Below, in pieces: positions 21,475 to 33,063 of a stretch of DNA of 64,000 bases. Position 1 is the first letter of the stretch. Each line of letters starts with the position of its first letter. The notes under the pieces were generated by a model that saw only the letters and a list, made by a program, of their open reading frames with translations, was not told where the DNA came from and did not search any database. A program made the translations under genes and the position numbers. This DNA comes from Terriglobia bacterium (lineage in GTDB: Bacteria; Acidobacteriota; Terriglobia; 20CM-2-55-15). The DNA lies in the NCBI GenBank assembly GCA_963664115.2, contig CAXWPJ010000009.1, positions 608,001 to 672,000 of the forward strand, in the 5' to 3' direction.

Positions 21475-22302
21475 ATGAGCTTTTCAGTAGTTACGAACCT
21501 GTCCTCGATTAACGCCCAGGCCACTTTGGAAGGTACCCAGATGGGATTGCAGCGGACTTTGGCCCGCTTGACATCCGGCTTGCGTATCAACAGCTCTGCC
21601 GACGACGCCGCCGGCCTGGCCGTGGCCAACCGCCACAAATTGGACAACACCGGCCTGACCGTCGGTATCCGGAGTGCGAATGACGCCATCAGCAAGCTGC
21701 AGATCGAAGACGGCGCGTTGAACAACATCGCCTCGTTACTCGATCGCGCTTTGACTCTGGCCAGCCAGGCGGCTTCGGACACCTTCACCGGTTCTCGGGC
21801 GACCCTGGATGCCGAGTTCCAGTCGGTGCTCGCCGAAATCACCCGAAACGCGCAGGCTGCCGGCATCGAAACCGGCAATGCGAACCTGAACGCACGGTCG
21901 GTTTTCGTTGGGAACACCCAGACCAGCACCTCCGCCAGCGTTACCTATGTTTCGTTTGCTCTGACCACAGCGGCCGACGCTCAGGGTCTGGGAGTCAGCA
22001 CGCAGAACATCACCAACCAGGCCAATGCCGCAGCCGCCATCTCAAGTATTCAGACAGCCGTCGGTAGCCTGGGTACAGTTCAGGGCCGCGTGGGTGCGGC
22101 GATGAACCGCTTGAGTTTTGCGGTTTCACAGGCGCAAACGATGTCGGTCAGTGTGCGGGCTTCGGAATCCCGAATCCGTGACGCCAACATCGCTGAGGAA
22201 GCGGCAGCATTGACGAAGTTCAACATCCTGACCCAGAGCGGTTTGGCCGCGCTGTCTCAGGCGAACGCTTCGTCCCAGTCCGTTCTTCAGCTACTCCGGT
22301 AA
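21475..22302 (+). CDS. fliC: Flagellin (short, 275 aa)
   Basis: RLTSGLRINSSADDAAGL; SRIRDANIAEE...LSQAN. Confidence 0.96.
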   Translation: MSFSVVTNLSSINAQATLEGTQMGLQRTLARLTSGLRINSSADDAAGLAVANRHKLDNTGLTVGIRSANDAISKLQIEDGALNNIASLLDRALTLASQAASDTFTGSRATLDAEFQSVLAEITRNAQAAGIETGNANLNARSVFVGNTQTSTSASVTYVSFALTTAADAQGLGVSTQNITNQANAAAAISSIQTAVGSLGTVQGRVGAAMNRLSFAVSQAQTMSVSVRASESRIRDANIAEEAAALTKFNILTQSGLAALSQANASSQSVLQLLR

Positions 22303-22410
22303 AATCTGGAGGCACCGGCGCCGAATTCCATGAACTCGAGTAGTTAGACATCGCAGGGAAGGATTTCGGCCGTCTGTACTCTGAATTTTTACGAAAATCT
22401 CCGGGGGTCT

Positions 22411-22439
22411 CTAAAGAGGCCTCCGGGGACTGCCGATAA
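22411..22439 (+). promoter_or_regulatory. Sigma28 promoter of fliD
   Basis: CTAAAG-N15-GCCGATAA. Confidence 0.85.
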
Positions 22440-22478
22440 CGTGGTTGCGAACGAGATTGAGAGATCGAGGAGACAACC

Positions 22479-23834
22479 ATGGCAGGCGAGATTAACTTTT
22501 CAGGATTCAACGGCTTTGACTTCGGCCAAATCATCGACGTCACGATCGAAGCCGAAAGCGCTCCCCTAAAAGCATTACAGGACAAAGACAGCGACCTCAG
22601 AAAGAAGGATTCCGCGCTGGGATCGTTCGGCCTCGAAGTGGCCGACCTGCAGGATCCCGTTGGTGATCTTGTTCTTGGTACAGTATTTACAGACCTTGAG
22701 GCGTCCAGCACCGACGAAGACGTGGCCACGGTGACGCTCGGGGACACCGCGGTTATCGGGGCCTACGACCTCAACATCACCCAACTGGCTAAAGCCCAGG
22801 TCACGGCATCCACAAACGGATACACGAACACGACCGATACCGCCGCTGATGGCGGCACGATTTCGTTCACGATCGGCGCTGCGACCACGACCGACATCAC
22901 GATCAGCGCCGCGACCTCGGTGGCCGAGCTCAAAACCTTGATCAACAACCAGAATTCGGGCGTCGTCGCCTCTGTGGTTAATGACGGCACGAACAACAAG
23001 CTCGTAATTTCCAGTCGAGCTACGGGAGCCACAAACGGATTCACGATCAACAACAGCCTGACCAACGGTGTCGCCACCGTCGTGGCGTTTGCGGTGGGAC
23101 AGAGCCCCTCGGTCGGCAACAGTCAGGATTCACAGGACTCCGCATTTACCGTAAACGGCCTCGCGATTTCCAGCGCTTCGAATACAGTAACGGACGCGGT
23201 TCCGGGAACAACCGTAAAGCTGGTAGCGACTGGAACGGCAACCGTCAACGTGGAAGCCGACTACGATACGCTCAAAGAACACGTCAAGACCTTCATCACG
23301 GAATTCAATGCCTTGAAGGAATTCTTCGATAAGCAGACCAAAATCGACAGCATCACCGGAAAACCGGGGCCACTGGCCAATGACTCGATTCTGCGGCAGG
23401 CTCTGTCCGACGTTAAGAACATCATACTCACATCGAATGGTAACAACGGTACGTACTCATACTTGACCGAAGTCGGCGTCGAGTTTAAGCAGGATGGAAC
23501 TCTGACGCTGGACGACGAAACGTTCGACACCGCAATCAATACGGCGATTACAGATCTCCAGAAGCTCTTTCAGGGTGACGGCACCGTGGACGGCGTTTTT
23601 GACGATCTGAAATCGGCACTCAACAACATCGACAACACTGCGGGGTTGATCAAAACGACGCGGGACGCGTTGAGCCAGGCCATCAAGAACCTCCGCGACC
23701 AGATTCTCGGGCAGCAATTGCGCCTGGAGCTGAGACGGACGGAACTCCAGAAGTTGTATGCAGCGGCTGATCTGACCATGTCCCGACTCACGTCACAACA
23801 GGGCGCACTGGGATCGATCGGCTTTGCGTTCTAG
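22479..23834 (+). CDS. fliD: Flagellar filament cap protein FliD
   Basis: N-terminal INFSG..FDFGQII, ITQLAKAQ, SNTVTDAVPG, coiled-coil C-terminus. Confidence 0.93.
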   Translation: MAGEINFSGFNGFDFGQIIDVTIEAESAPLKALQDKDSDLRKKDSALGSFGLEVADLQDPVGDLVLGTVFTDLEASSTDEDVATVTLGDTAVIGAYDLNITQLAKAQVTASTNGYTNTTDTAADGGTISFTIGAATTTDITISAATSVAELKTLINNQNSGVVASVVNDGTNNKLVISSRATGATNGFTINNSLTNGVATVVAFAVGQSPSVGNSQDSQDSAFTVNGLAISSASNTVTDAVPGTTVKLVATGTATVNVEADYDTLKEHVKTFITEFNALKEFFDKQTKIDSITGKPGPLANDSILRQALSDVKNIILTSNGNNGTYSYLTEVGVEFKQDGTLTLDDETFDTAINTAITDLQKLFQGDGTVDGVFDDLKSALNNIDNTAGLIKTTRDALSQAIKNLRDQILGQQLRLELRRTELQKLYAAADLTMSRLTSQQGALGSIGFAF

Positions 23835-23877
23835 ACAGCAGTACGGGCGAGTGCCGTACAACAAGAAAGAGGAGCCT

Positions 23878-24321
23878 ATGAACTACTCAAACTATCAATC
23901 CGATGCTTACAAGGAAACGTCGGTAACGACTTCCAACCAGACCAAGCTGATCGTCATGCTCTACGAAGGCGCGATACGTTTTCTTCGTGAAGCGGTTGGT
24001 GCCATCGAAAACAAGGACATCGGTGCCAAAGCCAAGGCATGTGATCGCGCTCTTGCCATCGTTCAGCACCTCCATCTCTCTCTCGACATGGAACGTGGCC
24101 AGGAGATCTCCGCCGATTTGGACCTACTCTACCGCTTCGTAATTTCTAAGATTGTGGACGGGTCGAGCCAACTGTCGTCGAAGAACTTGGATGAGGCAAT
24201 CAAAGTGCTAGACACACTCTGTACTGCATGGACTGAGTTGGCCCAGAAGGAGCAAGTGGAATCGGTCCCTACCGAACTGCTGGCCCAAGCTGCAAAGGGC
24301 CGGCTGGCGCTGCACGGATAA
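23878..24321 (+). CDS. fliS: Flagellin chaperone FliS
   Basis: LIVMLYEGAIRFL, LDMERG..I...L..LY; RBS GAGGAG. Confidence 0.94.
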   Translation: MNYSNYQSDAYKETSVTTSNQTKLIVMLYEGAIRFLREAVGAIENKDIGAKAKACDRALAIVQHLHLSLDMERGQEISADLDLLYRFVISKIVDGSSQLSSKNLDEAIKVLDTLCTAWTELAQKEQVESVPTELLAQAAKGRLALHG

Positions 24322-24335
24322 TTCAGGAGGAATAG

Positions 24336-24770
24336 ATGAATTCTGCTCAAATCATAACAAGCCTCGAACGCGAGAGGCAATTACTTGAAGAATTTCGCAG
24401 CGTATCCGAACAGCAACTCAGGCTCATCGGAGATGACAATATCGACGGTGTTGAAAACTTACTCGGACGACGGGCGGACCTGATGGTGGAACTGACCGCG
24501 ATCGAGTCCACGCTGGCCACGTGGATTGCCCAGATCCGTCATGACCCTTCGGTCACTCCTGAAATGATGCATGAGCTTCGGACTCTGAACGATGAAATCG
24601 TGGAGCTGGCCAAGGAAGTGGTGGCCATCGATGCTGAAACTCACTGGAAGCTCGACCTCATTCGCGAACGGACACAGGCCGAGTTGAAGGACATCGATAC
24701 GAGCGTCCGGGCGCTGACGCAATACGGGAACACCGTCGAGGCCCAACCGCGACTCGACATCGACGGCTAG
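24336..24770 (+). CDS. FliT/FlgN-like helical flagellar chaperone
   Basis: Helical ORF after fliS with RBS AGGAGG; assigned from position. Confidence 0.6.
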   Translation: MNSAQIITSLERERQLLEEFRSVSEQQLRLIGDDNIDGVENLLGRRADLMVELTAIESTLATWIAQIRHDPSVTPEMMHELRTLNDEIVELAKEVVAIDAETHWKLDLIRERTQAELKDIDTSVRALTQYGNTVEAQPRLDIDG

Positions 24771-24959
24771 GCGCGCACACGTTCTCCAGGTGCCCGACGG
24801 TTGATTTTGCCTACCCGGCAAATTTGACCCACCTCGAGGATCAAACTCGAAGCACCTCTCGCACTTCTTTATCACAAGAGCCTTGGCGTTCAGAAAACGC
24901 AGGAACTCTGCAGTCAACGTGCGCGAGAAAAATGACCGAACGATTTTCGTCACAAGAAC

Positions 24960-24988
24960 CTAAAGGTTTGTGACACCGGTACCGATAG
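24960..24988 (+). promoter_or_regulatory. Sigma28 promoter of flagellin 2
   Basis: CTAAAG-N15-ACCGATAG. Confidence 0.75.
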
Positions 24989-25035
24989 AGAAAGTATCTG
25001 GCCAAATGGTCAGGTAAGAGAAACGAGGGAGTAGG

Positions 25036-25051
25036 CCAGCACGGATGCTGG
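25036..25051 (+). promoter_or_regulatory. CsrA-type GGA hairpin in the flagellin 2 leader
   Basis: CCAGCA-CGGA-TGCTGG, plus ACGGAGG at the SD. Confidence 0.65.
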
Positions 25052-25077
25052 TTTCCAAAATCACGGAGGATTATTCA

Positions 25078-25908
25078 ATGAGTTTTTCAGTAGTCACCAA
25101 CCTTGCATCCATCAACGCACAAGCGACTCTCCAGGGAACCCAGATGGGTCTTCAACGAACACTGGCGCGCCTGACTTCGGGATTGCGCATCAACAGCGCG
25201 GCCGATGACGCCGCCGGCCTCGCCGTTGCGAACCGCCACAAGCTGGATAACACGGGTCTGACTATCGGTATCCGGAGTGCCAACGACGCGATCAGCAAAT
25301 TGCAGATCGAAGACGGTGCGCTCAGCAACATCGCTTCGTTGCTGGACCGGGCCCTGACTCTGGCCAGCCAGGCCGCTTCGGACACCTTCACGGGTTCCCG
25401 CGCAACCCTGGATGCCGAGTTCCAGTCGGTCTTATCGGAGATCACCCGAAACGCGACGGCCGCCGGTATCGAGACGGGCAATACCAATTTGAGTGCCCGG
25501 TCGGTGTTTGTCGGAAACACGACGACCAACACGTCGGCGAGCGTGACCTACGTTTCGTTTGCACTCACGACTGCGGTCGACGCTACAGGACTGGGTGTCA
25601 GCACGCAGGACATCACGAGCCAGGCCAATGCGGCGACCGCCATCTCGGCCATCCAGGCCGCGGTCGGAAATCTGGGAACGGTTCAGGGGCGTGTCGGTGC
25701 GGCAATGAACCGACTGAGTTTCGCCATTTCCCAGGCGCAGACGATGTCGGTCAGTGTCCGGGCATCGGAGTCTCGGATCCGTGATGCCAACATCGCTGAG
25801 GAAGCGGCAGCACTGACGAAGTTCAACATCCTCACCCAGAGTGGTTTGGCCGCTCTGAGTCAGGCGAACCAGTCGGCGCAGTCCGTATTGCAGCTACTCC
25901 GGCAGTAG
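25078..25908 (+). CDS. fliC: Flagellin, second paralog
   Basis: Near-identical protein to 21475..22302; ATG 25078 after GGAGG. Confidence 0.96.
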   Translation: MSFSVVTNLASINAQATLQGTQMGLQRTLARLTSGLRINSAADDAAGLAVANRHKLDNTGLTIGIRSANDAISKLQIEDGALSNIASLLDRALTLASQAASDTFTGSRATLDAEFQSVLSEITRNATAAGIETGNTNLSARSVFVGNTTTNTSASVTYVSFALTTAVDATGLGVSTQDITSQANAATAISAIQAAVGNLGTVQGRVGAAMNRLSFAISQAQTMSVSVRASESRIRDANIAEEAAALTKFNILTQSGLAALSQANQSAQSVLQLLRQ

Positions 25909-26089: not shown

Positions 26090-26314
26090 CTATGAGGAGT
26101 GCTCCCCGCCTTTCGAACGCGAAAGCTCGTTTTCTGCTGTTGCGAGTCGATCCCTCTTAGTCGATAGTTCCTTATAGACCAACGACAGCCGCTTCCGTTC
26201 AGTCATCAGTTCCTGCTCCAGGGCTGCCAGCCGCTCTCTTTCAATTGATAAGTCCTGCTTCAGTTCGTCGACCCTGGCACTCACGCCGGTGAAATGGCCC
26301 GGGACATCCGGCAA
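26090..26314 (-). CDS. Coiled-coil hypothetical protein
   Basis: 74-aa ORF with heptad pattern; start codon uncertain. Confidence 0.4.
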
Positions 26315-26458
26315 TCCGACATCCTCGAAGGAGTCCTTAGCGGTTTGATTCGTTTTCGCCCTGAATGTAGCCTCAAGAAACCCCCGTCCGAAGCGTCGGT
26401 CGGGCTCTATATGACAACCTTCGGCCCATTCGTTCCAGGCATTGATAAAGACAAATCG

Positions 26459-27843
26459 GAGTTATTGTCAAAAGTGGTGTTTAGGAGATTGATTCAAGCG
26501 GCGGCCTGATCGACTTGTGTCGCTTCGACACCATCGTTGAATTTCACTCCGATGATTACCTTGCTCAGATCATCGAATCCTCGTAATCGTCGCCAATTGT
26601 TCTCAGCGCACTGGCCCAGTTTGAACATCATGTGCAGCATGCCATCCCGTGTCAGGCAACCTCTGGATCGCTTCGTTCGGTGTCGAATGGTGGCAAAGGT
26701 CGACTCAATGGGATTCGTCGTTCTGATGCTCTGCCAGTGCTTGGCCGGAAAGTCGTAAAAGGCCAGCAGTTCCTCTCTGTCTTTCTGCAGGCAGAGTGTG
26801 GCTTTCGGATACTTCGGTTCATAGGTTTCAATGAACAAGTCGAATGCCTTCTCGGCGTCTGCCTTCGTCTCGGCCTGCCAGATCGAGTGCAGGGCCTGTT
26901 TCGCCTTCGCCTGGACCGACTTGGGCAGGCAGTTGAGGACGTTCATGACTTTGTGCATCCAGCAACGTTGTTGACGTGTCTCGGGATAGATTTCCTCCAG
27001 TGCGGCCCAGAACCCCATCGCACCGTCACCGATGGCCAACTTCGGAACATTCATCCCACGGGACTTCAGCTTCAACAAGACCTCGCGCCAACTCTGTGTC
27101 GATTCCCGTACACCGTCTTCGATCGCCAGGAAACGCTTCTCTCCGCGTTCATTCACGCCGATCACGACCAATGCACACAACTTGGTTTGTTCCGCCCGAA
27201 GTCCGCTGTAGATGCCGTCGGCCCAGACATAGACCCAGCGATCTGCATCCAAACGCTCCTCGCATCCGAGGCGGTACTGTTCGCCCCAAACCTGTTTCAA
27301 CCGCGATACCGTGCTCGCCGACAGACCCTGCGCCTGGGGACCGACAAGAACTTTTAGGGCCTCACCCATCTCGCCGCTGGAAACGCCTTTCAAATACAAC
27401 CACGGCACCGCTGCTTCCAGCGACTTCGTCTTCCGAATGTACGGTGGTACCAGGGCCGATCGGAACGTCACAGCTTCGCCCGTCTTGGCACGGACCTTCG
27501 GGATTTGGACTGTTACCGGACCCAATCCCGTCTGCAGTTCGCGTTCCGGCAGATAACCGTTGCGTACCACCCCGGCGTTTCCTGTCTCAGTTCGCCGGCC
27601 ACCGTGCTGGGATAGCAGCTCTGCCAATTCGGCTTCCACTGCGCGTTGGATCAGTTGCTGTGCCCCAACTCGTAGTAGTTCTGTTACTGGATCCTCAATC
27701 GTTTCTCGACCTTCCGGTCCATTCACGTTACTCTTGCTCACAGTGGCGTATCTCCTATGGTTGCTTTGAAGTTTTGTCACAACAAATCAACCAGATACGC
27801 CGCTCTTATTCAATCCCTCAAACACCAGATTCGGTTATAACTT
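26459..27843 (-). mobile_element. IS256 family insertion sequence (~1385 bp)
   Basis: Imperfect terminal IRs GAGTTATTGTCAAAAGTGGTGTTT and GAGTTATAACCGAATCTGGTGTTT; matching copies at 50.5 and 52-53 kb. Confidence 0.93.
26494..27741 (-). CDS. IS256 family DDE transposase
   Basis: WADGIY, DGVRES, IGDG, QRCWMHK, RTTNPIES; GTG start after AGGAG. Confidence 0.95.
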   Translation of the reverse strand: MSKSNVNGPEGRETIEDPVTELLRVGAQQLIQRAVEAELAELLSQHGGRRTETGNAGVVRNGYLPERELQTGLGPVTVQIPKVRAKTGEAVTFRSALVPPYIRKTKSLEAAVPWLYLKGVSSGEMGEALKVLVGPQAQGLSASTVSRLKQVWGEQYRLGCEERLDADRWVYVWADGIYSGLRAEQTKLCALVVIGVNERGEKRFLAIEDGVRESTQSWREVLLKLKSRGMNVPKLAIGDGAMGFWAALEEIYPETRQQRCWMHKVMNVLNCLPKSVQAKAKQALHSIWQAETKADAEKAFDLFIETYEPKYPKATLCLQKDREELLAFYDFPAKHWQSIRTTNPIESTFATIRHRTKRSRGCLTRDGMLHMMFKLGQCAENNWRRLRGFDDLSKVIIGVKFNDGVEATQVDQAAA

Positions 27844-28797
27844 GAGTTCATTCGAAGAAATCCGACTTACAAGAAAGAACAAGCATGGTTCGTCGATCGC
27901 AGAGCTGATTGGTTCGACAAGCACGGAATCGATCTCACTCGAATCTGGCCCGGGGATATCGACGATGCTGATAAATTCGTCCAGGCGCACCTCCATTCGG
28001 ACGACGAGATCTTGGACTGGCGTCTCGGTGTCGACGCCGACCGTGAGGCGATCCACCAGAAGTGGGGAGTAAAGTGGCCGTTCGATCCCGATCTATCCCT
28101 TCCAGCCAGCCGCATAAACCCCGGGAACATCTCGATTCCAGATTGTTTGGATGCAGTGCCGGTCGATGAAGATGTGTATTTCGACGGTGAATCTGCCTCG
28201 GACCGCGCTCGACAGATTCGATCCGACCTGCGGACACATCGGCAACACATCAAGATCCTTCCGACTGACCATCCTGGCCAACCCGGGCCGAACGGGACGT
28301 GGCGTTCCGTTGCGTATCAGATTGGACGTGCTTTGACTTGCTACCTCGGAGATATGGCACCCGACAACTTTCTCGGTTCCAGGATCGTGATGGACGTAGA
28401 AGGTGAGTCACTCGTGATACGGAAAGTCAATTTACCCGGCGACGCCCCCAGCGACATTAGATCAAGCGAGTTTAAGGTCGATCCGAGTCTTGGACGGCTC
28501 GGAAACTACCGACGTTTCAATGAATACATGGAAACTTTCAGCTGGCCCGACGATGACGCCCGTTTCTTCAAGCCATGGAACCCGGTTCCATTGGAAACGT
28601 ACGAGGGCTATCTCCGAGTATGGGACACCCGTAAGCTCAACCCTGACGTCAATTTTGCCGAGATCGCACGGCGACTCGACGGGGACGAATACGCTAAAGA
28701 ATGGCGGCGTGAATCTCTAAGGAAACAGGCTGCCCGCCAGCACCGGAAAGCTCAGGAACTAATCGAAGGCGGCTTTCTCGAGATCCACTAATCCAGC

Positions 28798-28868
28798 CGG
28801 ACATCTGCCGTACACACCCCCTGTACCGCAGATGTCCGTTGACCTTTCCCACCTTGCCGAATTAAATC
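28798..28868 (+). promoter_or_regulatory. Inverted repeat abutting a sigma70-type promoter
   Basis: CGGACATCTGC.GTACA-N7-TGTAC.GCAGATGTCCG, then TTGACC-N17-TTAAAT. Confidence 0.55.
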
Positions 28869-28874
28869 GTATGT

Positions 28875-29096
28875 ATGCAGAACACAGCAGCCACGATTCC
28901 ATGCCCAACGTGCCGGCAGTCTCTTCGCGAGCAGCAAAGCAAGACCGGTAAACCGTATTTCATCTGTGGACCGTGCGGAGCTCAGATCTTTATCCGAATG
29001 CAATACGGAATCGATCTGTTGCACCAGACGGCCAGCGATCAGCAGCACGATCGGACAGAGAATCGGGGATTGGCCCATGCTGGGCCTGGAGTGTAA
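28875..29096 (+). CDS. Small zinc-ribbon protein
   Basis: CPTC-x17-CGPC in SKTGKPYFICGPCGAQIFIR. Confidence 0.7.
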   Translation: MQNTAATIPCPTCRQSLREQQSKTGKPYFICGPCGAQIFIRMQYGIDLLHQTASDQQHDRTENRGLAHAGPGV

Positions 29097-29109
29097 ATAA
29101 CGGGGAAAA

Positions 29110-29142
29110 TGAAAAACGGTGCGCGACAACGCACCGTTTTCA
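29110..29142. terminator. Terminator-like hairpin after the zinc-ribbon gene
   Basis: AAAACGGTGCG-CGACAA-CGCACCGTTTT. Confidence 0.7.
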
Positions 29143-29244
29143 GAGTTCTGAGGGCCAACCCGGTTAGGATCGGTAACAGAAATCAGTAGAAACCGAATTC
29201 TAGCACAGCAGCCTTCAGAGCTTCCCCATAAATAGCCCACAGCG

Positions 29245-29430
29245 GAACACCGTTAAGAACGGTTTCTGACGGTTTTCAGAACGGTTTTTTGAATTGTTTT
29301 GAATCTCGTTGGTTTTCGGAAAAACCGAAATCAAACCGTAGTTCTCTCGGAGTTCCCCTACGGGGAAACTTTTCACGGTGGAAACGGTTGATATTTTTCA
29401 AAATCGTTTCTAACGGAAATTAAACGGAAG
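29245..29430. repeat. AT-rich array of ACGG(TT/AA) direct and inverted repeats
   Basis: GAACGGTTT, GACGGTTTT, GAACGGTTTT, AAACCGT, AAACGGTT, AACGGAA, AAACGGAA. Confidence 0.65.
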
Positions 29431-29445
29431 GAGCGGAGTTTTTAA

Positions 29446-29886
29446 ATGCGAATCAAGATTCCTCTATCTGAAAAGACAGAACAGTTATTACCGACTGGCG
29501 ACTATGTGGCCGAAATCAACGAGGTCTCACCTGGCACCGCGAACACTGGAACCAAGTTCCTGAGAGTAGTCTTCGAGATCGTAGGACCGGATCATGAAGG
29601 CGCTCAGACGGATTGCCAGCTTTACCTAACCGAACGGGCAGCCTGGAAGCTGAACACGCTGCTCGCGGCAGCCGGAGTGGAACCCCAGGGCGACGAGATT
29701 GAGACGGCCGAACTTCTCGGATCGAAACTCCACATTCACGTCAACCAACCGCAGGACTCATCAGGGCAGCCAATGCGACCCGAAGTAACGAGTTTCAGAC
29801 GGTTGGACCCGACCCCGAACGGATCCGAACCGAACGGTCAACCGATTGAAAAACCGAAAATTACGGATGACGACGTTCCGTTCTGA
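29446..29886 (+). CDS. DUF669 family phage-type ssDNA-binding protein
   Basis: LLPTGDYVAEI...FLRVVFEI OB-fold pattern; SSB-like acidic tail DDDVPF; RBS AAGGAG. Confidence 0.8.
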   Translation: MRIKIPLSEKTEQLLPTGDYVAEINEVSPGTANTGTKFLRVVFEIVGPDHEGAQTDCQLYLTERAAWKLNTLLAAAGVEPQGDEIETAELLGSKLHIHVNQPQDSSGQPMRPEVTSFRRLDPTPNGSEPNGQPIEKPKITDDDVPF

Positions 29887-29898
29887 AACGGAACTCTG

Positions 29899-29956
29899 CG
29901 TGGCGTAGCGGCAAATGGAGCCGCAGCGGTACCGGTTCGATTCCGGGCGCTCACGA
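29899..29956 (+). ncRNA. tRNA-like element lacking an anticodon arm
   Basis: Acceptor CGTGGCG/CGC(T)CACG, TA linker, D-arm GCGGC-AAATGGA-GCCGC, 6-nt linker, T-arm CCGG-TTCGATT-CCGG, discriminator A. Confidence 0.6.
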
Positions 29957-30146
29957 ATGCCTGTCCTCCGGCCCGGTTAACCATTCCACGAGTGGGCAAC
30001 GGGGTCTGGCCGACGACGACCCACGACGGCGAACGGCATGCTGGTGCCGGATGGATGGGCGGCCCGGGGGTCCCAGGGGGCAGCGCCCCTTGGTGACCAC
30101 TCGGACACGACGAGTGGAGCGATGGCCAGAACAAGGCGAAACCGGG

Positions 30147-30182
30147 CACACCGGGGGCTATTGCTAGTAAGCCCCCGGTGTG
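30147..30182. other. Candidate double-strand origin hairpin for rolling-circle replication
   Basis: 13-bp perfect stem CACACCGGGGGCT/AGCCCCCGGTGTG with loop ATTGCTAGTA, 23 bp before rep. Confidence 0.55.
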
Positions 30183-30205
30183 TCTCAAAACGGAAACGAA
30201 ACACG

Positions 30206-30826
30206 ATGAAACGGAACAAAACTCAACAAATCGAGACGTTCAAGGGAATCGACGATCCCGAGGAATCTCCGCAGTATGTGGGCGGGCAGTGGCGCGAAAG
30301 GATGAGTGGGGGAACCGACCTGAAAGTGGAAGCACATCCTCCACACAACCATGAAGCTCGGCAGCGCATGAACGCAGAAATTCCGGATGAAATGGGACCT
30401 TGGCTCGAAGGCCTTGCGCCCTGGGACTGGTTCTCGACCTATACGTTCAGCCGCCTTGCGACCGCCGAAGGCGCACACACGATGTTTCGGAAGCACCTCA
30501 AGTGGCTCGAACTGAAAGCGGGTCAACCCGTCTATGCGTTTCGTGCAGACGAGTACGGTGCGTTAAACGGTCGTTTTCACCTCCACGCACTGATCGGCAA
30601 TGTCGCGCGTTTAACCCCATGGTGTGGCGAGAAATTGCCACCTGGAACCTGGGGTCTTCCCTGTTGCGGGGTTCACGGATGGCCCTGCGGCCACGCTCGA
30701 GTGCTGCCCTACGATCCCGAGATCGGCGCCGGAGGCTACGTCGCCAAGTACATCACGAAGGAACTCGGCGACTTCGAATTGATTGGCTTCCCGGCGTCCC
30801 CTCAACCCGTACTTCAAAGTGGGTAA
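30206..30826 (+). CDS. HUH endonuclease, rolling-circle replication initiator (Rep)
   Basis: Motif I WFSTYTF, motif II FHLHALI, motif III YVAKY; start uncertain. Confidence 0.82.
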   Translation: MKRNKTQQIETFKGIDDPEESPQYVGGQWRERMSGGTDLKVEAHPPHNHEARQRMNAEIPDEMGPWLEGLAPWDWFSTYTFSRLATAEGAHTMFRKHLKWLELKAGQPVYAFRADEYGALNGRFHLHALIGNVARLTPWCGEKLPPGTWGLPCCGVHGWPCGHARVLPYDPEIGAGGYVAKYITKELGDFELIGFPASPQPVLQSG

Positions 30827-30830
30827 GCCG

Positions 30831-31457
30831 ATGTCAACAAAGCCGCGACATCAATCAGACCCGTTGTTGGACCCGGACGACGTCATCCAATGGCCTCCAA
30901 CCTCCGAGACAGATGAGCAGGCAGTTCTATTGGTAACGCCCACTCTGATTGAACGTCGTGCCGCCGTTGACGAGGATTTCCGTTCGCGGGTATTCGGGAC
31001 CGACCAAGCTGTCATGGATACGCTTGCCCGTGCAGCGATGGAAGCGGGCATGTCTCTGATGGATCTAATTCATTCGGAGCTTGGCAAGTCAAAGTCAGAC
31101 AGAATCACAACCGTTTTGAAGGAAACACTCAAGCGTATCTACGATGCCGAAAAACATCGCTTGGCGCGTCGACGGGAAGTCGAGCGGATCCGGAGATCGC
31201 GTCCGGGACGCGTCGTAATCAAAGGCCTCCCACTCAAACGATTCTACCGAGTCCGCCGAAGGTTGCTCGACAGTTGGTCCAACACGGAGCATTTTCTGAA
31301 CGAAGCGCAATGCGACCTAGAGCAGGAAAACGGACCACACGTGAAGCTTGTCACCATGTACCGGTACGGCGGACCAAGGATCAATGTGGTCGCCGTGTTC
31401 CAGGTCGATGCCCCTGAGGAGGTAGTTCGAAATGGCAAAGAAGAAACGGAAGGATAA
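30831..31457 (+). CDS. Hypothetical protein of the integrative element
   Basis: 208-aa ORF 4 bp after the rep stop; basic central helix. Confidence 0.65.
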   Translation: MSTKPRHQSDPLLDPDDVIQWPPTSETDEQAVLLVTPTLIERRAAVDEDFRSRVFGTDQAVMDTLARAAMEAGMSLMDLIHSELGKSKSDRITTVLKETLKRIYDAEKHRLARRREVERIRRSRPGRVVIKGLPLKRFYRVRRRLLDSWSNTEHFLNEAQCDLEQENGPHVKLVTMYRYGGPRINVVAVFQVDAPEEVVRNGKEETEG

Positions 31458-31611
31458 GAAGAAACGGAAGACCCGATCTGTCAGTCTCGAAGGTTTCGAG
31501 ATCGGAACCGCAGAATGGTTTCCAGATTGTGAACCGACAACTTACGTCGACGGCTTCCCGGCCTACTGGATCGACGGAAAGTTGGTGATCTATATCCCCC
31601 TGGTCGCGTAA
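31432..31611 (+). CDS. 59-aa basic protein (not in ORF track)
   Basis: RBS GAGGAGGT; MAKKKRKDKKKRKTR...; stop abuts the excisionase ATG. Confidence 0.7.
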   Translation: MAKKKRKDKKKRKTRSVSLEGFEIGTAEWFPDCEPTTYVDGFPAYWIDGKLVIYIPLVA

Positions 31612-31860
31612 ATGATCGGCAAACCCATCGCACTCATCCAAGTCCCAAACCAGCGACTCTTTAGCGTCCGAGCCGCAGCCCAATACCTGGGGATCCATGA
31701 ACAGACTCTCCGAAAGCTAACGGAAGAGGGTGAGGTCCGGGCACGCCGATCAGGAAGCCGGCGCGTGTATGCGCTGGAGGATCTGGATTCCTACGTCGCA
31801 TCGCTTCCTGAGTGGTACGATGCCGGCGGCGAAGAATCCGGGACAGAAGGGAGGTCCTAG
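31612..31860 (+). CDS. Excisionase / HTH_17 DNA-binding protein
   Basis: FSVRAAAQYLGIHEQTLRKL...GEVRARR..SRRVY..EDLD. Confidence 0.85.
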   Translation: MIGKPIALIQVPNQRLFSVRAAAQYLGIHEQTLRKLTEEGEVRARRSGSRRVYALEDLDSYVASLPEWYDAGGEESGTEGRS

Positions 31861-32952
31861 ATGGGAATTCTTCGCAGGCGAGACCAATCCGGCGGTAACC
31901 GGATTGAACTCTCGAAGCGATGGCCGGACGGGTCCCGGTTCCGGCGTTACTTTCCAAACAAAACGATGGCAGCAAAGACGCTGGCCAGGATTGAAGAATC
32001 CATCGCCATGGGCACATGGCGCAAGCTCAAGGACGAGCTCAAACGTGGGATCGGAGACGATCTCACTATCAACCAATTGGCCGATCTTTACTTCGAATGC
32101 TACTGCAAGGTACAGAACAAACGACCCGAATTCAAGAAATACGCGCTGAAGCCGATCCGAGCCAAGCTCGGCAACGTTACGGTACGTTATCTACGTCGGG
32201 CAGACGTTTACGACTTTGTGCGGCAACGTTCGAAAGAGGTCGCGCCAGCAACGGTCAATCGAAGCGTGGGAGTGCTTAAGAACATGCTCACGTTCGCTCT
32301 GGATAACGAACTGATCGACCAACATCCCCTCATTCGGTTCCGCATGCTTCGCGAGGAGCCGAGGGCTATTCGCGTTCTAACGGTAGCCGAGGAACGTTGT
32401 TTGATCGATTCCATCGCTAACCCAACGATCGCCAGTTACGTTGCAATCCTGGGTGAAACCGGACTCCGCAAGGAGGAAGGGCTGAGTCTACGTTGGGCAA
32501 ACGTTAATCTGGTCGATCGAATGCTTTCGGTGGAACATACCAAGAGCGGTCGTCCACGTTACGTCCCCTTATCTGAGTTTGCGATCGAGCACCTTGGATC
32601 GTTGGTCCGACTGATCGATTGTCCCTATGTGTTCGTTAATCTCAAGACTGGCACCCGATGGAACGATCCGCGGGAGCCGTTTGAGGCCGGTAAGGAGAAA
32701 GCCGGCCTCTCCTGGGTCGGATTCCATGATCTGAGGCGCTACCGGGCGACTCAGTGGGTCCGCCAGGGGGTCGATCTCAAGACGGTGCAGGAACTATTGG
32801 GTCATGCCGACATTCAAACCACGATGCGGTATGCCCATTTCTCACCGGACCATGCCATTCAGAAAATCCGTTCCGTACAGCGATCTGAACAAGAAAACTG
32901 GGAGTTGGAGCGGGCGAAAAGCGGGAGGCGAATCCGAAGTGAGAGTCTTTGA
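31861..32952 (+). CDS. Tyrosine recombinase (phage integrase family)
   Basis: TGLRKEE, TKSG, FHDLRR, LLGH, TTMRY catalytic R-K-H-R-H-Y. Confidence 0.95.
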   Translation: MGILRRRDQSGGNRIELSKRWPDGSRFRRYFPNKTMAAKTLARIEESIAMGTWRKLKDELKRGIGDDLTINQLADLYFECYCKVQNKRPEFKKYALKPIRAKLGNVTVRYLRRADVYDFVRQRSKEVAPATVNRSVGVLKNMLTFALDNELIDQHPLIRFRMLREEPRAIRVLTVAEERCLIDSIANPTIASYVAILGETGLRKEEGLSLRWANVNLVDRMLSVEHTKSGRPRYVPLSEFAIEHLGSLVRLIDCPYVFVNLKTGTRWNDPREPFEAGKEKAGLSWVGFHDLRRYRATQWVRQGVDLKTVQELLGHADIQTTMRYAHFSPDHAIQKIRSVQRSEQENWELERAKSGRRIRSESL

Positions 32953-32979
32953 GAGGCGTAAAAGGGCTGTAACTCGTTA

Positions 32980-33063
32980 TGCCGAAAAGAAGATTCGAAC
33001 TTCCACGGGGTTGCCCCCACTAGATTCTGAGTCTAGCGCGTCTGCCAGTTCCGCCATTTCGGC
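32980..33063 (-). tRNA. tRNA-Leu(CAG)
   Basis: GCCGAAA acceptor, CTAGA-CTCAGAA-TCTAG anticodon arm, long variable arm, TTCGAAT loop; no encoded CCA. Confidence 0.95.

Follow-up and report, generated by a model that had tools for sequence, protein, structure and literature searches.

The replication-integration half of a probable rolling-circle element at tRNA-Leu(CAG) in a Terriglobia genome, and its relatives in Acidobacteriota

The analysed stretch, called the window here, comprises 64,000 nucleotides of a contig from a Terriglobia bacterium (C9:608001-672000); plain positions refer to the window, and those marked "C9:" to the same contig, outside or inside the window. It is considered likely that the segment from 27844 to the tRNA-Leu(CAG) gene represents the half with the replication and integration genes of a 10.1-kb element inserted at this gene, that the intact form excises, replicates by rolling circle, and needs a helper to leave the cell, and that the copy at hand has been immobilised. 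A sequence-only reading of the window had proposed an integrative, capsid-less rolling-circle element; this agrees with the attachment (att) sites, an empty site, an HUH Y2 replication initiator (Rep), an origin-like motif, and the synteny of Rep, recombinase, and tRNA gene (Table 1).

Without the insertion sequence (IS) that interrupts it, the full element measures 10,136 bp and extends to sequence outside the window. Its 63-bp att core, with identity from the tRNA anticodon loop through 11 bp past tRNA-Leu, has a single exact direct copy on the same contig, 614 kb away in the assembly. The 23-bp repeat found beside both cores is a weak match alone (E 2.4), and its location makes a role as arm site of the integrase (Int) plausible. 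In the congener G002, the distal flank is fused directly to tRNA-Leu and represents the empty site. The gene order is att-DUF5131-TcmP-DuOB-DUF488-DUF488-(IS)activator-Zn-ribbon-SSB-origin-Rep-orf-peptide-Xis-Int-att/tRNA (SSB, single-strand-binding protein; Xis, excisionase). This order and the size of 10,136 bp follow from the att copy, the swapped IS flanks described below, the interrupted genes, and the empty site. The distal half thus holds five cargo genes, a DUF5131 and TcmP pair followed by DuOB and two DUF488 genes. The integrase does end 27 bp from the tRNA gene, as first read. The left border formerly placed at 26090 and the size of about 5.5 kb have to be revised, since 26090-26458 is the end of a host gene, the element continues elsewhere, and with its cargo it reaches 10.1 kb. 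A local att partner near 26090 was considered and is not there; the partner lies about 600 kb away. G002 also harbors four degenerate partial copies of the tRNA-Leu 3' end 10-14 kb downstream (L112:3560-6992), one of them followed by sequence 72% like the element's distal att arm; these partial copies look like remnants left by islands that entered this site one after another.

The first reading had implied an intact element, a view that does not hold: an IS256-family insertion splits it in the assembly and cuts off the 5' end of the activator gene. Joined across the IS site, the distal half and the sequence starting at 27844 give one uninterrupted activator frame, which the IS cuts within its AWEFLRRN-like motif. 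A second IS256 lies at C9:31772, five kb past the distal att copy, and the 9-bp flanks of the two ISs are swapped reciprocally, the only such pair among 48 full IS256 copies in the genome. The interrupted host WbsX gene gives the same picture: its remainder lies at C9:33157-33825 (Pfam WbsX 2.6e-55 on that piece), a 411-codon open frame runs across the interruption site, and the two pieces are adjacent, with the gene whole, in all four congeners. Because IS256 breaks the activator and parts the att sites by 614 kb, the window's copy is probably immobile. In contigs of four runs from four studies, one of which may be the source, the module adjoins an IS in all four and the cargo half in three; these are short-read contigs, which can neither bridge an IS nor tell circles from integrated forms.

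It is possible, if doubtful, that the split arose in assembly or reflects a rearrangement present in a minority of cells; most cells would then hold one unbroken element (11.5 kb including the IS) in which only the activator is damaged. About 50 identical 1.4-kb IS copies confuse assemblers, both halves adjoin an IS in three of the four runs, and the 601-kb middle piece starts and ends in two halves of one gene, so that further hidden crossovers would be needed. Against this, IS shuffling looks genome-wide, since 20 of the 48 near-identical full copies have unmatched target duplications, and many CTAG-target repeats in the 601-kb piece could conceal more crossovers. Moreover, one run contains the module and leaves the cargo half and its flank uncovered, though absence from contigs is weak evidence. 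Whether the split is genuine or a misjoin, the activator gene is interrupted.

Rep shows the features of HUH superfamily 1 (Y2), namely motif I, the HUH motif, YxxxY/K, and an HUH fold in its model (pLDDT 78), in line with the first assignment. Among 27 close homologues found, 26 sequences were aligned, and H125, H127, Y178, Y182, and K185 are invariant in them, as are C140, C153, C154, and H157. The latter belong to a C-x12-CC-x2-H insertion (residues 140-157, window 30623-30676) between the HUH motif and the catalytic tyrosines, possibly a zinc site; it is present in 42 of the 146 representatives listed, which are for the most part the nearest ones. This insertion marks the Rep clade that carries the origin motif. 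In a Foldseek search of the model against viral structures (best E 2.7e-9), the named matches are microvirus initiators, and annotated phage matches of Rep are weak and of the same type. Foldseek matches in the PDB are weak; the top-scoring solved structure is the HUH protein ORF119 of SIRV1 (Z 8.8, rmsd 3.1, 106 aligned). In Pfam, Rep matches only PF23343, not Rep_2, Viral_Rep, or Rep_trans. With a Rep profile, the number of clusters recovered rises from 43 at E<1e-30 to 408 at E<1e-10. No relative was found in IMG/VR and no meaningful match in a plasmid collection. Rep gave 14 matches at E 1e-6, five of them strong, in 400 other genomes of the class, one weak match in 400 other genomes of the phylum, and none in 34 genomes of the same family; a second Rep was not found in the host genome.

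Upstream of Rep, the hairpin region noted at the outset is supported by a DNA fold z of -3.5 and contains the predicted origin. In 31 of 36 clusters, the sequence coding for Rep motif I is preceded at a distance of 70-440 nt by the motif TTGCT[ATC]G[AT]A-N7-9-GTGT; three more match with 1-3 changes and two are without it (11 clusters without an anchor and eight with short flanks were left out of the scoring). The host genome (4.9 Mb, both strands) contains four occurrences, among them the one at window 30161, and the 680 kb of loci show no further ones. The motif is also present at two loci that were not part of the scored set and absent at three distant Reps. A stricter form was found in three of 401 class genomes, each time beside a Rep, and a control pattern in none; these three matches may overlap the loci used to derive the motif. 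In IMG/VR, the pattern gave three matches, all chance matches in coding sequence without a Rep. In the window, the motif forms the loop of a 13-bp hairpin. Since perfect stems occur in just 13 of 38 upstream regions, the sequence and not the stem is the conserved feature of the origin. The phage phiX174 has the same CTTG-A core, and the cut falls after the G. The core also resembles CTTGATA, the nick site of pC194-type origins (PMC10378824; here and below, statements on cited papers refer to the part of their text that was available); by analogy with this site, a nick is predicted between 30167 and 30168.

Rep and its surroundings recur as a family. Locus scans yielded 15 genome loci, at least 80 metagenome loci, and no IMG/VR locus; all 15 titled genome loci are Acidobacteriota. 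The 95 loci among the matches listed form 55 Rep clusters at 90%, 25 of which were usable after those with less than 2.5 kb downstream (30) had been dropped. Among them, a co-directional recombinase directly follows Rep in 24 (16 tyrosine and nine serine recombinases, one cluster having both; identified with hidden Markov models (HMMs) built from Pfam-verified family members), and a convergent tRNA gene lies within 3.6 kb in 15. Several other clusters end in a partial tRNA copy. Six distinct relatives are bounded by att sites (5,473, 5,534, 6,932, 7,519, 4,718, and 10,935 bp) and sit at tRNA-Met, -Ser, and -Val. Their cargo is variable, resembles defence genes, and includes Eco57I-type restriction-modification, AAA, MauJ, and HNH genes, with TIR and RES in unbounded loci. 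In a quick Rep tree, built without L085 and L101 because of their short length, the recombinase type switches several times.

In tblastn searches of 100 related loci, homologues were found for Int (24), SSB (2), and the Zn-ribbon protein (2), and none for the orf, the peptide, Xis, or the cargo. Only Rep, the origin motif, and the recombinase are family-wide; DUF669, the Zn-ribbon protein, Xis, and the activator are interchangeable parts. A SpoVG-like protein (Pfam E 0.023 only) fills the slot beside Rep in seven clusters and may act as an SSB. Across the relatives, no membrane, ATPase, or structural family proved to be conserved.

The commonest accessory genes encode an unannotated small protein with a median length of 138 aa, found in 11 clusters at about 1.7 kb before Rep (L017, L018, L019, L022, L029-L031, L033, L075, L097, and L100), and an HTH_17 fusion protein of about 400 aa, found in seven. 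At L141:9010-12686 (G680:C1), a SpoVG-like gene, origin, Rep, a Zn-ribbon gene (52% to the window's), and a serine recombinase follow one another; no tRNA or att site was found in 19.5 kb of this locus, which comes from a 99%-complete genome in 10 contigs. At L026:3100-7850, a long regular repeat array, CRISPR-like by eye, lies directly upstream of a family element. A literature search, with most subscription papers outside it, returned no description of this Acidobacteriota family, its origin motif, or a virus link.

The origin and Rep also occur outside integrated elements. Contig L072 (1,410 nt) encodes a small CopG/RHH-like protein and carries the origin and Rep; its 127-nt terminal repeat indicates a circle of 1,283 bp, which as a single contig could be an assembly product. 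It suggests that origin and Rep may be a sufficient replicon, and hence a candidate minimal plasmid, comparable to Phasyl-type mini-replicons, which have a Y2 HUH Rep. Genes related to the small L072 gene are present in L037, L039, and L040. The second case is L044 with its near copies, the sole recombinase-less cluster, which has the same Rep and an origin with one mismatch. It belongs to an apparent tailless double-jelly-roll (DJR) provirus of about 11 kb (L044:5500-17050; also L042, L046, and L047), with Rep, an SSB-like gene, a packaging-type ATPase, a DJR-like capsid protein, and, recognised by eye, membrane proteins and a lysin-like open reading frame (ORF); no recombinase was found in it. 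The ATPase matches phrog_2666 (2e-11), with weak matches to phage Jorvik and SH1. A 341-aa protein scores 0.96-0.98 to PM2 P2/PRD1 P3 clusters in the Atlas, and all its listed top Foldseek matches are DJR capsids, obtained with a poor model (pLDDT 43). Single-sequence queries, which reach close relatives only, found no relatives of capsid or ATPase in IMG/VR and none of the capsid in INPHARED.

This virus raises the idea that the family consists of satellites of tailless DJR (PM2/PRD1-like) Acidobacteria viruses, replicated by rolling circle and packaged in the helper's capsid. In the quick tree, the virus Rep nests among capsid-less integrase elements (100% SH-aLRT), L044 and L054 share 73% DNA identity across origin, Rep, and SSB, and the element sizes do not exceed the roughly 11 kb of the virus. 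In Pseudomonas, a jumbo phage transduces islands that carry a gene resembling inovirus Gp2 (PMC12595487). However, a common replication module speaks for exchange, not parasitism, and the L044 sequences are best read as exchange of a cassette, not as packaging of elements. In addition, the window's Rep sits in a different clade from the virus Rep, no Rep relative was found in IMG/VR, searches of the host genome revealed no DJR genes, and the capsid model is poor. The satellite explanation is hence rated unlikely for the family. Slightly less credence still is given to its widest form, in which one origin-Rep cassette would have three lifestyles (1.3-kb plasmid, 5-11-kb tRNA-integrated element, and DJR virus) and the integrated elements would be tailless-virus satellites shuttling defence cargo.

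That the element arose by decay of a larger inovirus or DJR prophage, or of an integrative and conjugative element (ICE), through loss of structural or transfer genes, an outcome named at the start as one that would overturn the proposal and now largely refuted, is very improbable: although Rep is akin to microvirus/inovirus initiators, the DJR virus has the same Rep, and FseA-type activators are known from ICEs, the att sites bound only 10.1 kb without fragments of virion or transfer genes, the six complete relatives (4.7-10.9 kb) are equally small with different recombinases and tRNAs, and the recombinase type changes on the Rep tree as expected for a live modular family.

For the preferred reading, a replicating integrative element, the following course is proposed. 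Int would integrate the circle site-specifically at the anticodon loop and restore the tRNA, in keeping with the att repeat and empty site observed. The FseA-like activator may bind the inverted repeat beside the -35 and turn on the run of Zn-ribbon, SSB, Rep, orf, Xis, and Int genes, by analogy with FseA. Xis and Int would then excise a circle of about 10.07 kb. Rep is predicted to nick TTGCTAG^TA in the hairpin, with host helicase and polymerase extending from it. The strand displaced in this way is expected to be covered by the DUF669 protein, and the two tyrosines would permit re-initiation. For transfer, the element may be carried along by a conjugative element, Rep then also acting as relaxase, as has been suggested for streptococcal integrative mobilizable elements (IMEs). 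This route, drawn from analogy, is tentatively preferred; packaging by a tailless virus seems doubtful, and helper-free or rare routes are equally so. The cargo would probably repay its upkeep through DNA modification or defence.

Several observations weigh against this course. Contig depth over the module is about that of the flanks in all four runs (a weak measure), no excised circle, single-stranded DNA, or nick was seen, and, since short-read contigs do not span the IS, the split itself could be a misjoin. The origin motif was derived from the same loci in which it was counted. A promoter scan gave no call at 28798-28867. No activator homologue was detected at E 0.001 (proteins of 173-552 aa), and none by tblastn in the 100 related loci; without homologues of the activator, the regulatory step draws on one domain match and analogy. 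Neither a coupling protein nor a conserved transfer gene was found across the family, and VirB4, VirD4, and Zot were not found in the host genome (97% complete). Of two ATPase-family matches in that genome, one lies among housekeeping genes in an ORF read as PhoH-like, and the other, a 762-aa frame, we take to be FtsK. For comparison, TcpA is present in 83 of 118 comparable streptococcal IMEs (PMC5704250).

Table 1. Positions of features in and beside the replication-integration module (window coordinates)
Feature	Position	Strand	Remarks
Host WbsX-family glycosyltransferase gene, 3' end	26090..26458	-	IS-interrupted; in flagellin cluster; not part of element
IS256-family insertion sequence	26459..27843	-	Transposase_mut 6e-63; transposase 26494-27780
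FseA/RovC-like (DUF2285) transcription activator, IS-truncated	27844..28791	+	start in distal half; RovC_DNA-bd 3.8e-6, above cut-off
Inverted repeat, 17-bp arms (28798-28838), abutting TTGACC-17 nt-TTAAAT	28798..28867	+	repeat 94%; z -7.6
Zn-ribbon protein, 73 aa	28875..29096	+	weak Pfam zinc ribbons
Loose AACGG/CCGTT-rich non-coding stretch	29099..29427	.	not conserved
DUF669 single-strand-binding-type protein	29446..29886	+	Pfam DUF669 7e-5 (above cut-off); PHROG SSB 4.9e-9
tRNA-like three-way fold	29899..29955	+	not significant; not conserved
Predicted double-strand origin: 13-bp stem, loop ATTGCTAGTA, GTGT 30178-30181	30147..30182	+	conserved motif
HUH Y2 replication initiator (Rep), 206 aa	30206..30826	+	REP_ORF2-G2P 4.9e-6, just under cut-off
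orf, 208 aa	30831..31457	+	one non-self homologue, 58%
59-aa peptide, basic N-terminus, putative coding	31432..31611	+	ORF list
Excisionase-type HTH_17 protein (Xis)	31612..31860	+	Pfam 1.5e-10; TIGR01764 above cut-off; PHROG excisionase 1.3e-6
Tyrosine integrase (Int), intact	31861..32952	+	Phage_integrase 1.7e-26; R203, H289, R292, H315, Y324
Candidate Int arm site, 23-bp repeat	32910..32932	+	second copy C9:26988-27010 beside distal att, 91%
att core, 63-bp direct repeat	32969..33031	.	exact copy C9:26815-26877
tRNA-Leu(CAG), intact target gene	32980..33063	-	convergent to integrase

The module is co-directional, as first described, with ORFs on the plus strand from 27844/28012 to 32952, and HMM searches bore out the identities of the activator, DUF669, HTH_17, and integrase genes, the Zn-ribbon match being weak. 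Homologues of the Zn-ribbon protein (127-129 aa, 50-52% identical) lie beside Rep in L110 and L141, with a family member also in L111, and homologues of DUF669 adjoin Rep in L038 and L101. The orf at 30831 has no family match in Pfam or PHROGs and no Atlas match; the 59-aa peptide likewise has no family match and no homologue in the 100 loci. The earlier statement that virion and Zot genes are missing agrees with the lack of any hydrophobic or Walker-A ORF of at least 35 aa in 27844-33031. No FtsK/Walker-A translocase or coupling protein was found in the module or among the cargo annotations. The element holds no complete set of mating-pore genes, no primase-helicase replication module as in phage-inducible chromosomal islands (PICI) and their minimalist relatives (PICMI), no Zot/pI ATPase or small hydrophobic coat proteins as in inoviruses, and no DJR capsid or packaging ATPase as in DJR prophages.

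Upstream of the Zn-ribbon gene, the interrupted activator gene encodes the two marks of the FseA type, the AWEFLRRN-like motif and a C-terminal DUF2285. The adjoining inverted repeat with its TTGACC hexamer could be an activator box and promoter, by analogy, or possibly a terminator instead. It abuts the -35-like hexamer, as the FseA box does (PMC10359603, also the source of the AWEFLRRN motif), with a geometry unlike that box (two hexamers 15-16 bp apart). Two features of the first reading did not stand up. Its repeat array proved irregular: TRF reports only a 12-mer in 2.9 copies. The count of AACGG/CCGTT (13 against a mean of 1.9, the densest window of the genome) concerns a motif chosen post hoc and is not significant against shuffles made by a crude routine. 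No such array was seen in relatives, and a role as iterons was therefore rejected. The supposed tRNA mimic can form an acceptor-like stem and D-like and T-like arms, without an anticodon arm; its fold is not significant (z -1.2, -0.6, or -0.9, depending on the bounds), ARAGORN and Rfam give no call there, and no relative has the T-arm motif upstream of Rep, so that a functional RNA was likewise rejected.

The cargo cassette is compact (C9:27256-31313; L001:9257-13314) and a candidate for a role in DNA modification or defence, which its DUF5131-TcmP pair and DuOB-DUF488 set presumably serve; a literature search on these genes found nothing. Flagellar genes are divided between the two ends of the 601-kb piece. 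The stretch 21475-25908 holds fliD/fliS-like genes between a pair of flagellin genes with 79% identity over 300 nt, and a third flagellin gene lies at L001:4074-4901. Other CTAG-target repeats reach dozens of copies, and the genome looks heavily reshuffled.

Small, capsid-less, chromosomally integrated, and helper-dependent elements are represented by TLC and RS1 (satellites of CTXphi), PICMI, and PICI. TLC and RS1 have rolling-circle Reps and integrate at dif via XerCD, and PICI and PICMI have a primase-helicase; unlike for these, no helper was found for the present element. Actinomycete ICEs combine a TraB/FtsK translocase with Int, Xis, and a rolling-circle Rep; the element has no translocase and so does not belong to them. 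Tailless PM2-like DJR prophages likewise have a Y2 HUH Rep, and tailless phages of different types are documented to exchange modules (PMC12715192); in contrast to these prophages, the window's element is without capsid and ATPase and has its own integrase. The first reading had not recognised the combination of genes as a described family. Elements with Rep/relaxase, excisionase, and integrase are, however, already described in streptococci (PMC5357655). The non-canonical streptococcal IMEs have relaxases related to rolling-circle initiators (PHA00330, Viral_Rep, Rep_2, MobT), measure 5-18 kb, sit at tRNA 3' ends, and lack a coupling protein in 35 of 118 cases (PMC5357655, PMC5704250). The present element resembles them in its compact Rep-Xis-Int order, size, tRNA target, absence of a mating pore, and tyrosine/serine integrases, with two extra ORFs between Rep and Xis. 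As far as the available text of these papers allows the comparison, it differs in its phylum, in that no TcpA was found in any member, and in its SSB slot, FseA-like activator, defined origin motif, and a Rep common to a DJR virus. Since plan, size, tRNA targets, and the lack of a coupling protein match, the element is of a kind already known; it is IME-like in plan, with mobilisation predicted only.

The regulatory region recalls the FseA-PrdfS switch of ICEMlSymR7A (PMC10359603), where a DUF2285 activator is followed by an inverted repeat by the -35, upstream of the excisionase operon. Here, the repeat is a near-perfect hairpin with 17-bp arms instead of two hexamers 16 bp apart, no type IV secretion system is present, and the activator gene is broken by IS256 and was not found in relatives. 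The I55/VPI-1-like islands (PMC12595487) share an integrase, a phage-type rolling-circle-like gene, defence cargo, the lack of a capsid, and helper dependence. They differ in size (23-55 kb, judged from the element names), in their AlpA/YqaJ/RadC core, in belonging to Pseudomonadota, and in that packaging was observed. The Charybdis preprint, as far as its text was available, is unrelated to the element.

As the window's copy is likely a dead specimen, the value of the finding lies in the family. It is a recurrent family of mobile elements in a phylum whose mobilome is barely described, and its replication cassette appears to have been caught in exchange among plasmid, integrative element, and tailless virus. 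If its members were packaged by DJR viruses, this virus group would have satellites, of which the literature search, with most subscription papers outside it, returned none. The family supplies an exactly defined origin sequence with a predicted nick site, both open to testing, and the 1.3-kb minimal replicon could seed a vector for Acidobacteriota.

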